Sequence record: PV691511.1
Reading direction: 5' to 3' (one strand)
DNA length: 64,000 bases
Source of the DNA: Escherichia phage WPEC2
Shown here: piece after piece, positions 29,304 to 49,617 of the stretch
Layout: every line of letters starts with the position of its first letter
How positions within the stretch are numbered: the first letter of the stretch is position 1
Program-made: the position numbers and the translations under genes
The notes under the pieces: model-generated
Seen by the model: only the letters and a program-made list of their open reading frames with translations
Database searches by the model: none
Told to the model about the DNA's origin: nothing

Positions 29304-29784
29304 TCTAGCCTCCTAAACGCGTCTCTGACGCACTTTTTATATATAAGATGATAAATCACCTTACCTAGTAAGTGAACTTGCTCTACGAGCCTCTTATGAA
29401 GCTTATGTTATAGGATATACTATTGCTACCTGTTTAAGCAAGGTTTTTGCACACAGAAAATAATTTTTAATAAAACTCTTGACTTTTGTGTTCGAAGTAT
29501 GCTACCCTAGAAATCTATTAACGAGCGCAGCGAGTTAAGGTTTTAGGTTGTTGATGTAGTACTCTGTACTCAAGTACTGTACTCTGTACTAGATTAATAA
29601 TTATTAAATATTAATAATAAATAATTATTAGATCTAACAAACAGGTACAGTGTATCAGAACTGGTACGTACAGATCAACTTCTATCAATTAAAAATAAAA
29701 TAATAAATTATTATAAATAATACTTGATCTATAGATCAGTATGAAGTACAGTACGGAACATCTCAACAAGAATGGAGGTGTGCA
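29304..29784. promoter_or_regulatory. divergent intergenic control region with repeat arrays
   Basis: no ORF; GTACTCTGTACT x2 (29559-29590), quasi-palindromic AT block 29593-29631, GATCTATAGATC palindrome (29726-29737). Confidence 0.55.
29479..29508 (+). promoter_or_regulatory. promoter, TTGACT-N18-TGcTACCCT class
   Basis: TTGACT 29479-29484, TG at 29500-29501, TACCCT 29503-29508; same motif on minus strand at 49589-49617. Confidence 0.45.
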
Positions 29785-29970
29785 ATGATTAGCGAGAATC
29801 CGTGCAAATGGCATCATGTGCCTATTAAAGATTGTATGTCTTGTAATCCACGTTCTATTTATAACATTGCATCTTATGATGATGACAATGTGTTAGACGA
29901 TGATGAAGGCTGGGAGGATTTAGATTGGACTGGTTATGAAACCAAAAAGGATAAAATTATTCCTAGTTGA
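29785..29970 (+). CDS. small cysteine-containing protein
   Basis: 61 aa, GGAGGT RBS 5 nt before ATG. Confidence 0.5.
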   Translation: MISENPCKWHHVPIKDCMSCNPRSIYNIASYDDDNVLDDDEGWEDLDWTGYETKKDKIIPS

Positions 29971-30007
29971 CTTAAGATATCCTTCGTGCTAAACTAGAAG
30001 TGAGGAG

Positions 30008-30259
30008 ATGCCGATCACTCCCCATTTGGGGTTCGAAGGATATATGCAAAATAGCTTTTATTTTAGGTGCCGTGCTTGTAATAGGCATTTGACAAACCAC
30101 TCCAGACGTGATAAAAATGGAGTCATCAAGGAATCAGACCTCTGTTCTATTTGCACAGGTTTGGCTTTTGATGATAGTCCCGAAAGGGTTTATCAGCATC
30201 AATGTATAACAGACGTTCTCGTGTCAAACTTGGTAGAGGACGAACAACTAACAGATTAG
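30008..30259 (+). CDS. small zinc-finger-like protein (start uncertain)
   Basis: CRACNRH...CSIC; alternative ATG at 30044. Confidence 0.4.
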   Translation: MPITPHLGFEGYMQNSFYFRCRACNRHLTNHSRRDKNGVIKESDLCSICTGLAFDDSPERVYQHQCITDVLVSNLVEDEQLTD

Positions 30260-30267
30260 GAGGAACA

Positions 30268-30516
30268 ATGTCTCTATTAGAAAAACACGTGTTTGAAGAT
30301 GGTAACGGCAATGCAGTTTTTCTTTTCCATCCAGAAAAATACACATCTGAAAACAATGGTACAACTTCTATTGTAATCACTAAAGATGTTAAAGTTATTG
30401 ATTTCTTGGCTCTGATGCGAGAGATGGATCTTGAAATTAATACTTTTAACGCAGAAGCTTTGGTTGTTGCTCTTCTGGAAAAGAAAGATAGTGAAGAAGT
30501 AACAGAATATGCTTAA
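30268..30516 (+). CDS. hypothetical protein
   Basis: AGGAGG RBS then ATG at 30268 (MSLLEKHVFE...); track start 30202 is further upstream. Confidence 0.45.
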   Translation: MSLLEKHVFEDGNGNAVFLFHPEKYTSENNGTTSIVITKDVKVIDFLALMREMDLEINTFNAEALVVALLEKKDSEEVTEYA

Positions 30517-30523
30517 ATAACTA

Positions 30524-30559
30524 TTGACAAACGTATCCTTCATATGTTAGGATACGTTT
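30524..30559 (+). promoter_or_regulatory. promoter CTATTGACAA class with overlapping 11-bp inverted repeat
   Basis: TTGACA 30524-30529, TAGGAT 30548-30553; AAACGTATCCT (30529-30539) inverted at 30549-30559. Confidence 0.5.
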
Positions 30560-30762
30560 ATCAAGTGTGGTAACAGGGTCGTTGACTTTTGTTAAGAGGG
30601 GCTTGCACTGCGGTAGTGTTAGAGACTACTTCTTCAGAGGTTAGCTACCAAAGAGGAAAAGGAATAGTCTCGGCTCAAGAACTTTTACGCTGAAAGTTGG
30701 GCTTGGTCTTAGAGAATGTAGCGGTTCTCTACAATCGTCAGCGTCTCTGTTACCACATTTAT

Positions 30763-30837
30763 GGCCCTGTAGCTCAATGGGAGAGCTGTCGGCTCATAAC
30801 CGATAGGTAGCTGGATCGAAACCAGCCAGGGCCACCA
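30763..30837 (+). tRNA. tRNA-Met (anticodon CAU; could be Ile2 or initiator)
   Basis: hand-folded cloverleaf: acceptor GGCCCTG/CAGGGCC, anticodon loop CTCATAA, encoded CCA. Confidence 0.7.
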
Positions 30838-30839
30838 AC

Positions 30840-30914
30840 GTCTTTATGGTGTAATGGATAGCACAGGAGTCTTCTAAACTCTTAGTCAAGGTTCGATTCC
30901 TTGTAAAGACACCA
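30840..30914 (+). tRNA. tRNA-Arg (anticodon UCU)
   Basis: acceptor GTCTTTA/TAAAGAC, anticodon loop CTTCTAA, T-arm CAAGG-TTCGATT-CCTTG, CCA. Confidence 0.7.
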
Positions 30915-47511: not shown

Positions 47512-47870
47512 TTTTCCTCCTTTTTGTATTCAATGAACATATCTGCATAGTAAGCTTTACGTTCTTCAAATTTAGCAGGGTTTACCACAATGAACAACAC
47601 CTTTCTATTGTCTTGTGGTTCTTTGATTGTAATATATAAATCTTTTGTGCAATAGAAACCTGTGGCTTTGTAAGCGTCACCCCAATTATCCACTCCACGA
47701 TCTATACGATCAAACTTGCAGTTATACTTTTTATCATCCACCTGGTAGACAGCTTCACCACCATACCAAGTGAAGAATTGGCTACCTTCCACCCCAATCT
47801 TGAAACCATCACGGGCGGCTGTAGCATTGGTGGCAATCATCAACATCAGGATACAAAGTAGCCTTTTCAT
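47508..47870 (-). CDS. secreted protein
   Basis: signal-peptide-like MKRLLCILMLMIATNATA. Confidence 0.5.
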   Translation of the reverse strand: MKRLLCILMLMIATNATAARDGFKIGVEGSQFFTWYGGEAVYQVDDKKYNCKFDRIDRGVDNWGDAYKATGFYCTKDLYITIKEPQDNRKVLFIVVNPAKFEERKAYYADMFIEYKKEEK

Positions 47871-48176
47871 TTAGAATTCCTCTTCAGTCTTCTGTCGGTT
47901 TTTGAAGAATACTACGTCATACACCTCTCCGTAACCATCATTTACACAGAACATAATAAAACGATCATCTTCTGCTGTTGGTGCGCGATGTTCAAGTTCA
48001 AAACTTTCAATAAAACCGCGTGAATTTACGTAGTAGATTTCATCCTCACCAGAGAACATCCAATCCCTGTCTATCAGATAGAAAGCTAAACTCACAGGCG
48101 ACAACTCATCCTTCACAGAATCATTGTACAGCATGTGGGCTGCAACTGCCAAACTTAAAGTCGTATTGTGCCGCAT
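47871..48176 (-). CDS. hypothetical protein, tandem paralogue A
   Basis: shares LSLAV..H..Y...VKD and E.E.RAP..DD..IM..VN.G.GE...VVF.K with neighbour. Confidence 0.5.
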   Translation of the reverse strand: MRHNTTLSLAVAAHMLYNDSVKDELSPVSLAFYLIDRDWMFSGEDEIYYVNSRGFIESFELEHRAPTAEDDRFIMFCVNDGYGEVYDVVFFKNRQKTEEEF

Positions 48177-48484
48177 TACATCTCCTCGTCGGACTTCAAG
48201 GCTTTAGAGAATACTACATTAAACGTTTCACCGCAACCATTATTAACATAATACATGATGTAATTGTCATCTTCGTCTACAGGCGCACGATACTCCAGTT
48301 CATAACTATACAAATTAGAATTACTTGTGCAACCTTGTGGATACCAAAAGTAGAGTTCATCCCCAGATTCTACCCATTTAAGACCAGTCCGATCTTCAAA
48401 CACCAATGTAGATGGGTTTTCTGAATCTTTTACAGCTTCTTCGTAATACTGGTGCACCGTAACTGCTAATGATAATGTACTCAT
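48176..48484 (-). CDS. hypothetical protein, tandem paralogue B
   Basis: paralogue of 47871..48176; start at ATG 48484 with GGAGG RBS (track start is GTG). Confidence 0.5.
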   Translation of the reverse strand: MSTLSLAVTVHQYYEEAVKDSENPSTLVFEDRTGLKWVESGDELYFWYPQGCTSNSNLYSYELEYRAPVDEDDNYIMYYVNNGCGETFNVVFSKALKSDEEM

Positions 48485-48657
48485 CACGCCTCCAAATAGT
48501 GTTTACAAATGACAAAACGCCATGTTTGTTTATAATAGTCTCTTTTTTCAAGAGCCTCTTTGTAAGAGGGTATACGTTGCGACAGAAGCATCCATTCACA
48601 ATCTGCACCCATTCTTCCATAAAGCGCGTAACGGATGTTACTTTGTTTATCTCCCAT
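48484..48657 (-). CDS. small hypothetical protein (not in ORF track)
   Basis: hand-translated 57 aa (MGDKQSNIRYALYG...) with AGGAGG RBS and TGATG stop-start overlap. Confidence 0.35.
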   Translation of the reverse strand: MGDKQSNIRYALYGRMGADCEWMLLSQRIPSYKEALEKRDYYKQTWRFVICKHYLEA

Positions 48658-48700
48658 AAATGCCTCCTTAATCTTGTTTACAAGTATACCCTCTAATTAG

Positions 48701-48898
48701 TTACACTTTTTCCCAAGTACCAAAAGCACAGGAAGGGTAGATTCCAACTTGAGGGTTTCCGTTATCATCTTTGAAAGTAAAACTGTTGTTGTCTTTATCA
48801 AGAACTGTAGAATAAATCTTACCAACAGTAACGCAGTTGGAAGCTTGACCCAGTTCAGTAAGAGTAAGACATTTCATTTTCTGTTTCTTTGTAGCCAT
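48701..48898 (-). CDS. hypothetical protein
   Basis: 65 aa ORF. Confidence 0.4.
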   Translation of the reverse strand: MATKKQKMKCLTLTELGQASNCVTVGKIYSTVLDKDNNSFTFKDDNGNPQVGIYPSCAFGTWEKV

Positions 48899-48980
48899 TT
48901 ATAAAATCTCCTTAGTAAGTGAATCTTTATTCTACACAAAGAGCTTTGCACATGTCAAGTAACTCTTTGTCAGATTAGTC

Positions 48981-49250
48981 TTAATGATTAGTGATGTTGA
49001 TGACAATCTTAGTTTCAACCTTAGCCCAACAGTAATCTGCTTCATTAAAACGACTAGTCACAATGTATTCTCCTGCACGAGAACCTGTTAAGCACACTGC
49101 ACCTGTATCTGTAGCTAAGTAGTAGTCCCGTTCTTGTTCACTTACTTCTGAATCGTAGTAGTAGAAAACAGACATAGGTTCAATTTCAGATAAACGGTAT
49201 AACTTTGGAACAGGGGATTTCTCGATAAACTCAACAGAAGTTTTACTCAT
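48981..49250 (-). CDS. hypothetical protein
   Basis: 89 aa ORF. Confidence 0.45.
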   Translation of the reverse strand: MSKTSVEFIEKSPVPKLYRLSEIEPMSVFYYYDSEVSEQERDYYLATDTGAVCLTGSRAGEYIVTSRFNEADYCWAKVETKIVINITNH

Positions 49251-49483
49251 TTGTTTTCTCCTAGATCTAAACTAATTAAGAAGTCACGAAGGATGATCAT
49301 TTGTTCTGTAGACAATGATAATACACCTTCTCCATAAATATCACCAGACCATTCAGCAGTTAGATCTAGTGTACCAGTACCAGGAAACCAATCAACAGTG
49401 ATCTGATTACCATTAGAGTCAGGTAGTATTTCACTGACTAACATAACACACTCTCCTATTATTGTTCTTGATCTTACGATCAT
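49247..49483 (-). CDS. hypothetical protein
   Basis: 78 aa ORF, first gene after minus-strand promoter. Confidence 0.45.
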   Translation of the reverse strand: MIVRSRTIIGECVMLVSEILPDSNGNQITVDWFPGTGTLDLTAEWSGDIYGEGVLSLSTEQMIILRDFLISLDLGENK

Positions 49484-49588
49484 CTACCGATAAGAACAAG
49501 TACTTAAATCTCTGTTCTTCGAACATCTAACGATAGAGATTAATCTATTACATAATCTATACTCGCTATCGCTCGACCCTTCGGGGTT

Positions 49589-49617
49589 AGGGTAGCATAT
49601 TTTTTGAAAAAAGTCAA
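49589..49617 (-). promoter_or_regulatory. promoter, TTGACT-N17-TGcTACCCT class (minus strand)
   Basis: rc of 49612-49617 is TTGACT, rc of 49589-49594 is TACCCT with TG upstream; near-identical to plus-strand copy at 29479. Confidence 0.45.

Follow-up and report, generated by a model that had tools for sequence, protein, structure and literature searches.

Predicted promoter and hairpin cassettes at two sites in the genome of Escherichia phage WPEC2

The two sites in the WPEC2 window

The window analysed here is a stretch of 64,000 nucleotides (nt) from Escherichia phage WPEC2 (PV691511.1), which we assign to Phapecoctavirus (Stephanstirmvirinae, phAPEC8/phi92 group). It matched Escherichia phages WPEC4 and WPEC6 with 100% identity in pieces, and many others with 96-99% identity. 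Two near-identical promoter-like sites lie in it: site 1 (TTGACTTTTGTGTTCGAAGTATGCTACCCTA, 29479-29509, plus strand), which opens a unit running towards a tRNA cluster, and site 2 (TTGACTTTTTTCAAAAAATATGCTACCCTA, 49617-49588, minus strand), which heads a nucleotide-metabolism block. Sequence comparison indicates that the two are real members of a conserved cassette, present three times per genome in coliphages of the phAPEC8/phi92 type, in which a predicted promoter is followed by a small hairpin box.

A sequence-only reading of the window had already pointed to the two sites; its coordinates for site 1 were correct, and the end of site 2 is 49588 and not 49589, an error of one position. The pattern TTGACT-N10-16-TATGCTACCCTA had 2 matches in the window against 0.00 expected from 100 dinucleotide-preserving shuffles, and a chance origin of the matching sites was ruled out because of this value. 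The 12-mer alone also had only two exact copies in the window, those of sites 1 and 2. By pairwise alignment the sequence common to both sites was TTGACTTTT, longer than first noted, and CGAGCG-(C/AT)-AGCGAGT followed exactly 12 nt past TACCCTA in both (29522-29535 and 49561-49575). The 12-nt identity reported before exists, but the conserved unit is larger and consists of the promoter and a 13-14 nt hairpin box past the predicted start point. The composite cassette reads TTGACT, a 17-18 bp spacer, TGnTACCCTA, 11-15 nt, and then CGAGCG-N1-2-AGCGAG; its hairpin part is (2-4 variable pairs)-C-GA-GC-G(N)NA-GC-GA-G.

Each site had also been described as the start of a transcription unit. This is so for site 1, which opens a plus-strand unit from a divergent intergenic region. 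Site 2 does not stand at the start of its strand block; it is read as an internal promoter because it lies 3 nt past the stop codon of the co-oriented open reading frame (ORF) 49621-50046. The features of both sites, with the syntenic class to which each belongs, are as follows.

Site 1 (class 1), plus strand
29479..29484, plus: −35 element TTGACT; TTGACT or TTGACA in the class 1 orthologues at loci L010, L013, L022 and L031
29500..29509, plus: extended −10 element TG-C-TACCCT-A, with TG at 29500-29501, the hexamer at 29503-29508 and an 18 bp spacer to the −35
29513..29517, plus: predicted start zone, 5-9 nt past the −10 hexamer, placed by sigma-70 geometry
29518..29538, plus: leader hairpin TTAA-CGAGC-GCA-GCGAG-TTAA, with the box CGAGCGCAGCGAG at 29522-29534
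29539..29784, plus: remaining leader with GTAC repeats, two AT-rich tracts and the conserved motif AGATCTAACAAAC

Site 2 (class 2), minus strand
49612..49617, minus: −35 element TTGACT, placed past ORF 49621-50046 as given above
49588..49597, minus: extended −10 element TG-C-TACCCT-A, with the hexamer at 49594-49589 and a spacer of 17 bp
49582, minus: predicted start, a G preceded by C, 7 nt past TACCCT, placed by the conserved pyrimidine-purine step
49576..49587, minus: palindrome ACCC-CGAA-GGGT straddling the predicted start, of uncertain significance
49562..49575, minus: hairpin box CGAGC-GATA-GCGAG, with poor outer pairs in this copy
49445..49561, minus: remaining leader up to the ATG of the first gene, with an AGGAGA ribosome-binding site

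At site 1 the base 7 nt past TACCCT is C, unlike the pyrimidine-purine step of the majority of the copies. Its leader is ~270 nt long and the first ORF is 29785-29970. The leader of site 2 is ~137 nt long, and the PHROG match begins at residue 14 of the listed ORF 49247-49483. An identical copy of the site 2 box in WPEC4 scored 30.6 bits with the covariance model described below. The stems of the start-straddling palindrome vary among class 2 orthologues (ACCC/GGGT, CAC/GTG, ACCT/AGGT, AACC/GGTT). This palindrome was tried as a conserved hairpin and left uncertain, being absent from the copies in chromosomal islands and overlapping with the box stem. Opposite site 2, at 49576-49593 (plus), a hairpin followed by AGCATATTTTTT arises where the complements of TACCCT and of the GAAGGGT start region pair; this hairpin was flagged as terminator-like by the scan, and its pairing is peculiar to this copy.

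Copies per genome and their syntenic classes

The WPEC4 record was assembled for a whole-genome motif search, which gave a third copy outside the window at WPEC4 57050-57105 (plus strand, TTGACTTTTTCAAAAAAATATGGTACCCTA-AACATATGTTTA-CGAGCGATAGCGAG). No fourth copy was found in WPEC4 with up to 2 substitutions allowed. A covariance model of the box, run on WPEC4, gave three matches at 29-31 bits, the next best match being at 11.5 bits. Orthologues were gathered by BLAST and pattern scans, and 17 unique instances were obtained. Three copies each were present in phiWec186 (a divergent Phapecoctavirus), Tr1 (a Citrobacter phage), a Justusliebigvirus uncultivated viral genome (UViG) that is complete and phi92-like, a Klebsiella-phage-like UViG, and UViG 3300014004. 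Orthologues were found in every lineage checked, and in each of these lineages all three syntenic classes were present.

Class 1 occupies a divergent intergenic region and opens the unit towards the tRNA cluster. Class 2, directly past the stop of a small gene in the same orientation, stands at the head of the nucleotide-metabolism block with the genes for helicase and anaerobic ribonucleotide reductase; this layout of site 2 was also seen in phi92, phiWec186, Tr1 and KP2025. Class 3 occupies a gap of 170-290 bp between genes of one orientation and points the opposite way, and in WPEC4 it is placed back-to-back with a sigma-70-like promoter of the neighbouring genes. Because hairpins come before the next stop codon, the antisense cassette of class 3 probably yields a short non-coding RNA of ~100 nt.

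Promoter geometry

The earlier assignment of TTGACT as −35 and TGnTACCCT as extended −10 held in all 17 unique instances, which come from at least five lineages. TG and TACCCTA were invariant (17/17), and the spacer sequence varied. The −35 element was only TTGACT, TTGACA, TTGATT or TTTACT among these instances, and its spacer to the −10 hexamer was 17 or 18 bp (17/17). A pyrimidine-purine step exactly 7 nt past TACCCT was seen in 14/17 phage and 4/4 island instances, and TG-n-TACCCT was invariant in both phages and islands. With a near-TTGACA −35 at 17 or 18 bp and TG one base before TAnnnT, the cassette has the sequence features of a sigma-70 extended −10 promoter.

Sites of the form TTGAC-N-TGnTAnnnT numbered ~30 in the genome against 1.6 expected. 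The extended −10 type therefore appears to be the normal early promoter of this phage, and the TACCCT trio a special subset of it. The invariant CCC of the −10 element (at −10 to −8) is unexplained by sigma-70 contacts. TATGCT was considered as a −10 element with an activator-type box 12-13 bp upstream (MotA-like); in several members the hexamer is TGTGCT or TGTGAT in its place (L031, L037 and L010, and islands L079, L083, L106 and L117), and TATGCT was rejected because the essential A at −11 is not conserved. A T4 MotA-type middle promoter was rejected in the same way, as a −10 TAnnnT at the TATGCT position is not conserved. No second TACCCT/AGGGTA half-site was conserved among the copies.

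The downstream hairpin box

The box folds through C-G, G.A, A.G, G-C and C-G pairs, including tandem G.A pairs, that close a GNA or GNNA loop. Within CGAGCG-N1-2-(A/T)GCGAG the variation was limited to one or two central bases in phages and islands alike. The loops were GAA, GCA, GATA, GGGA, GTAA and GAAA; a single GAAT corresponds to the published GAAB variant (PMC13037366). The three outer pairs covaried, with 83% of cells paired against 29-46% when the partners were slid. Their covariation score of 0.336, against at most 0.133 in the slid controls, was reached by 0/500 shuffles. The pair types at the three positions were CG:8/AU:5, UA:7/UG:6/CG:2/GU:1, and AU/GU/UA/CG/UG. For the class 3 RNAs, RNAalifold gave no shared structure other than the box hairpin, which it recovered again for islands and class 3 together, and minimum free energy folds of the predicted 5′ ends contained the hairpin in most instances. 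In the predicted transcript the hairpin would lie at about +4 to +30.

The fold is confined to the sense strand because the complement would have C.T and T.C mismatches. A sense-strand fold with many G.U pairs favours RNA, fits non-template DNA less well, and argues against a duplex operator. The motif had been proposed to mark either a dedicated promoter class or a regulator site. The dedicated class was borne out, with exactly three copies per genome; the box did not behave as a double-stranded regulator site, because its flanks covary with G.U included, as in a folded single strand (RNA or non-template DNA).

The core of the box has the two G-C pairs and the G...A-closed 3-4 nt loop of the consensus GCGNAGC/GCGNNAGC. 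This core corresponds to the 'mini-hairpin' of Hirao and co-workers, which has been found at the primase sites of G4/St-1, at ssiA of RSF1010 and at the three promoters of the N4 virion RNA polymerase (PMC13037366). A search of Rfam returned only tRNAs at the gathering score and nothing relevant at permissive E-values.

A scan of bacterial genomes gave 62 matches, mostly chance matches or an abundant repeat (...TGTCATTCCGAGCGnAGCGAGGAATCT...). In full the repeat reads ...TGTCAT(T/C)(C/T)C-GAGCGnAGCGAG-G(A/G)AATCT... and occurs in Acidobacteriota, Chloroflexota, Bacteroidota and Alphaproteobacteria (loci L074, L078, L082, L086, L087, L089, L090, L092, L098, L105, L111, L113, L116, L118-L120, L122 and L124). 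It has the same hairpin core with covarying outer stems (ATTCC/GGAAT, ATCCC/GGGAT, ATTGC/GCAAT) and had no Rfam match. As the core is the same, the repeat shows the fold to be a recurrent, intrinsically favoured module.

A relaxed pattern also matched a large marine podophage group and two other lineages. Because a mirror-image control pattern gave 11 matches, these three outside lineages were regarded as within chance and not counted as family, and a universal element shared with unrelated phages was rejected. In the marine group (L018 925-1075 and ~26 similar IMG/VR contigs) two inverted ...TTAATATCTATTAGAATGAATCTATACCCTATCCCCCCCAACGAGCGAAGCGAG copies, separated by ~70 bp, were seen in the divergent region that precedes the terminase gene; they resemble a pair of divergent promoters carrying the same hairpin box. 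Two unrelated AT-rich phage contigs among the matches listed showed a canonical extended −10 promoter and then the same box. In L153, about 5400-5520 (minus strand), the sequence is TGATAATAT with two boxes 30 nt apart, and in L206, 2108-2180 (plus strand), it is TGATATAAT with an 8-bp outer stem on the box.

A second promoter-plus-hairpin class was also observed outside the window. It reads TTGACA-N14-TGATAAGAT, that is TG(A/G)TAAGAT-gtatcac(a/g)ta, followed by a GGGCGG...CCGCC stem-loop, and has at least 7 copies (WPEC4 L001 34365, 36112 and 36563; L004 150157, 150633, 151436 and 152235). These copies sit in regions of many small ORFs and are reminiscent of the promoter early stem-loop (PeSL) cassettes of T4-type phages.

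Chromosomal islands carrying the cassette

Island copies were the matches of the bacterial-genome scan that were kept after filtering for TG and a −35 element. True composite copies were found in the complete chromosome of Citrobacter sp. OP27, two Buttiauxella metagenome-assembled genomes (MAGs), a Scandinavium MAG and one unclassified MAG; three further composite copies on small contigs were phage contamination. UViG L037 was of the same kind as the chromosomal copies, and the island-family loci are L079 (Citrobacter sp. OP27, CP191518.1), L106, L117, L077, L083 and L037. In each chromosomal copy checked the cassette started no more than about 30 nt past the stop of a tyrosine integrase gene (6 nt in L079), and the island integrase carries a DUF6538 domain. 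The cassette stands at the head of an operon running in the same direction, which comprises a leader of 300-500 nt, small ORFs, a gene resembling endonuclease VII and a DUF5906/primase-like gene of 407-411 amino acids. Beyond these genes, the cargo of L037 includes an XRE regulator, a resolvase and the restriction endonuclease Eco29kI. From this gene content, the cassette-bearing loci look like satellite-type integrative islands.

The island leaders and the class 3 RNA, and only these, had a common second segment (ATAGTATT..TTTCATGTTAgTCAtGaaAG.GAG.GTATG) and a second hairpin. Local alignment of island leaders with class 3 gave scores of 31-38, against a mean of 19.8 and a maximum of 27 for shuffled sequences. 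No cassette copy was found by blastn in E. coli complete genomes. Both the phage family and an integrative element from within its host range carry the same cis element, as is characteristic of a shared control signal. Because the same cassette heads island operons, it appears to be a portable regulatory signal and not an accident of this genome.

Proposed function and alternative explanations

The best explanation, in which we place somewhat better than even confidence, is that the cassette joins an extended −10 sigma-70 promoter to a shared leader hairpin marking a co-regulated set of transcripts. Host sigma-70 RNA polymerase would use the cassette as an extended −10 promoter, and transcription would start ~7 nt past TACCCT. 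The three transcripts would each begin with a 3-7 nt tail and then the same small stem-loop, and the outputs would be leaders for the tRNA unit (class 1) and the nucleotide-metabolism block (class 2) and, from class 3, a short antisense or small RNA. The three transcripts would be tagged as one co-regulated set by two invariant features, the hard-to-melt −10 element and the hairpin. The hairpin would most likely work after initiation, as a 5′ stability element or as a docking site for an antiterminator, a regulator or RNA polymerase itself. The function of the cassettes is thus probably that of a promoter and leader set co-regulated via RNA stability, antitermination or factor binding; as a control cassette of promoter and leader, it is possibly a signal shared by helper and satellite.

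Several points weigh against this explanation. TACCCT fits 3/6 consensus positions, which is why the generic promoter scan did not call the trio, and the start point, the activity of the promoter and its timing are predictions. Read-through from upstream is another possible source of class 2 transcripts. The box core is exceptionally stable as DNA and far less so as RNA (octamer melting temperature 76.5 °C vs 39 °C; PMC13037366), and this stability leaves room for a role at the DNA level. Given the repeat in unrelated phyla, the invariance of the box may come from an intrinsically favoured fold and not from protein recognition. The ten ORFs neighbouring the sites had no Pfam match and only unknown-function PHROGs, with no candidate binding protein among them, and no proteins common to islands and phage were found at E < 1e-3.

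The main rival, which we consider less likely, is transcription-activated replication priming. In this case the non-template strand would fold into a GCGNAGC DNA mini-hairpin resistant to single-stranded DNA-binding protein, which would act as an entry or recognition point for the phage primase-helicase; in a variant, the hairpin would stabilise an R-loop primer. The three copies would be origins, and the island copy would let the helper machinery replicate the island. All instances of the box core agree with the published DNA consensus, the lone GAAT being the GAAB variant, and such hairpins are documented at primase sites and ssiA as listed above as well as at the N4 early promoters (PMC13037366). 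The hairpin is confined to the non-template strand, whose complement would hold the C.T and T.C mismatches, and class 3 has no driven ORF and is opposed to its neighbours. A purine-rich initial transcript, the repeats and AT-rich tracts after site 1, and the primase-like protein encoded by the islands can be added on the same side. The origins of T7 and T4 consist of a promoter and an unwinding element, which we take as further support. Priming nevertheless remains unlikely in our estimate: G.T is frequent in the covarying outer stem (7/16 at one pair) and is better tolerated in RNA than in DNA, the AT-rich and repeat stretch after site 1 is unconserved in class 1 orthologues and length-variable within the genus, classes 1 and 2 are placed exactly where mRNA promoters are needed, and the island cassette stands at an operon head.

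Two other explanations fit the data less well. A phage or island regulator might bind TACCCTA and the direct/mirror repeat CGAGCG/AGCGAG as a double-stranded operator and so repress or activate the three promoters, the hairpin being incidental. TACCCTA and the box are strictly invariant with variable sequence between them, the CCC in the −10 element is left over by sigma-70 contacts, and the presence in islands fits a common regulator. This operator is improbable, however, as the TACCCTA-box spacing varies over 10-15 nt and the spacing within the box over 1-2 nt, the flanks covary as base pairs including G.U on one strand only, the variation within the box is all at loop positions, and the second TACCCT/AGGGTA half-site is not conserved. 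We give as little credence to a generic strong promoter cassette that spread by duplication or recombination like T4-type PeSLs, with the box merely a stabilising 5′ hairpin. Promoter-plus-hairpin units are common in the genome, as in the second class with at least 7 copies; two unrelated phage contigs have the same box behind a canonical extended −10 promoter, and the fold of the box recurs in many bacteria. Yet there are only three copies at syntenic positions fixed across genera, the copies differ mainly in the spacer and the N region and not at random, the unusual TACCCTA is always coupled to the box in the phage family and the islands, and the rearrangement breakpoints of the window do not coincide with the copies.

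For phages and islands together we offer a tentative joint reading, which is rather doubtful as it stands. Either the cassette would be a private Stephanstirmvirinae code, made of an activator-dependent or specialised sigma-70 promoter and a hairpin read by a phage factor or by RNA polymerase, that satellite-like islands have copied; or the copies would be mini-hairpin replication priming sites that the islands mimic for their own replication. If the private-code reading were true, one of the three outputs would be a conserved small RNA, Enterobacteriaceae islands would have taken the promoter and the first ~80 nt of this small RNA to the head of their operon, and the islands could sense or interfere with an infecting helper phage.

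Comparison with known systems and significance

The cassette resembles the sigma-70 extended −10 promoters of E. coli and its lytic phages in the TTGACT −35, the 17-18 bp spacer, TG at −15/−14, a TAnnnT hexamer with A-11 and T-7, and a purine start 7 nt downstream, which is predicted here. Unlike them, it has an invariant CCC as −10 core with an invariant A as the next base, and is always fused to one hairpin in the first 30 transcribed nt. It also occurs in three copies per genome, compared with ~27 ordinary extended −10 sites.

With the DNA mini-hairpins the box shares an identical core (two G-C pairs and a sheared G.A closing a GNA/GNNA loop) with variation at N only, as well as the tie to phage initiation regions; N4 too has three hairpin promoters. 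The cassette hairpin, unlike that of N4, is downstream of a sigma-70-type promoter and on the non-template strand or RNA, whereas the N4 hairpin is on the template strand at −11. In contrast to the published mini-hairpins, the box continues outwards with tandem G.A and with covarying pairs, many of them G.U. An N4-type hairpin promoter was rejected on the downstream, non-template position of the hairpin; these phages have no annotated virion RNA polymerase, and WPEC4 has no annotated RNA polymerase of any kind.

The lambda nut and HK022 put sites likewise occur in few copies per genome, directly past promoters heading long operons, and have a small hairpin with a G...A-closed loop. The nut/put hairpin acts on its own transcript, and by analogy the cassette hairpin may do the same. 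The cassette differs in that it has no boxA-like element, its loop is of 3-4 nt and not a GNRA-like pentaloop, and no N homologue was recognised; moreover, one cassette copy heads a short antisense RNA and not an operon. A lambda-type nut site was rejected since no boxA-like conserved linear element was found, the loops are of 3-4 nt, and the neighbouring ORFs are without Pfam matches.

Satellite P4 shares late-promoter signals with its helper P2. The islands are similar in that an integrative chromosomal element has a non-coding control sequence of a lytic-phage family at the head of its main operon. Unlike in P2/P4, the helper relation of Stephanstirmvirinae to the islands is putative, no activator is known, and part of the shared unit is transcribed and homologous to a phage small RNA. 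The T4-type PeSLs are also composites of an early-type promoter and a stem-loop that are repeated in a large lytic coliphage; they are numerous and flank variable ORFs, and the stem-loop, placed upstream, is a terminator that mediates shuffling (PMC2839356, PMC4122927). Identity with PeSLs was rejected, as the cassette has three copies at fixed syntenic sites and its hairpin is downstream of the predicted start.

For rV5, the genome paper gives no promoters beyond generic sigma-70 look-alikes and a T4-late-like motif (PMC3606486). No published description of the cassette was found in our literature searches, the motif strings did not occur in a relevant context, and neither a transcription study of the genus nor a satellite of this phage group turned up. 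Transcription in the large therapeutic coliphages of the rV5/phi92/phAPEC8 kind is essentially uncharacterised, and a subfamily-wide class of three members gives a handle on how the tRNA unit, the nucleotide-metabolism operon and a small RNA are set apart. With the box, the GCGNAGC mini-hairpin core is seen to occur naturally at a promoter of bacterial type. The presence of the cassette in integrase-primase islands hints at a possible helper-satellite pair, which would be relevant to phage therapy and to the sensing of helpers by satellites.

Genome context and neighbouring features

The gene order of the window had no match among deposited phage records. A 16.7-kb block (33270-49937) lies between the tRNA and structural blocks, and in typical genomes such as Mt1B1_P17 only ~70 bp separate these two; WPEC4 and WPEC6 have an arrangement that differs again from both the window and the typical genomes. 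The left junction (33200-33272) comes after a terminator-like hairpin with a T-run at 33240-33272. The right junction (49937-50046) is spanned by ORF 49621-50046, whose N-terminus is 36 amino acids longer than its PHROG family. The odd gene order may be a real rearrangement or an assembly artefact; it leaves the motif unaffected but alters the sequence upstream of site 2.

The leader of site 1 contains, at 29555-29730, at least 5 GTAC motifs (GTACTCTGTACT twice), several GATC sites and two very AT-rich tracts, one of ~45 nt and the other of ~35 nt. In class 1 orthologues of other lineages this stretch is absent or much shorter; its length varies within the genus, and it is annotated as repeat_region in one record. 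The idea that the repeats and AT-rich tracts make site 1 a replication origin was weakened because the stretch is not conserved in orthologues. The motif AGATCTAACA(A/G)AC, directly past the stretch, is kept across lineages.

Within the small-ORF/tRNA unit strong sigma-70-like promoters were seen on the plus strand at 29967-29995, 30524-30553, 31111-31140, 32081-32110 and 32846-32874, most of them with an extended −10 TG. The unit therefore appears to have several internal promoters besides the class 1 cassette, and a good terminator lies at 32804-32822. ORF 32896-33192 (plus strand, 98 amino acids) is positioned at the end of the tRNA unit. It was considered as an RpoS sigma factor, after its label in phage SKA64, and this was rejected, as it had no Pfam match and only an unknown-function PHROG. 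A Srd-like protein, similar to sigma factors, has been described in the related phage rV5 (PMC3606486). An eleventh tRNA at 31460-31544 (plus strand) scored 39 bits with the Rfam tRNA model and was not reported by ARAGORN; it is annotated as tRNA-Tyr in WPEC4 and as a pseudo-tRNA in another record.

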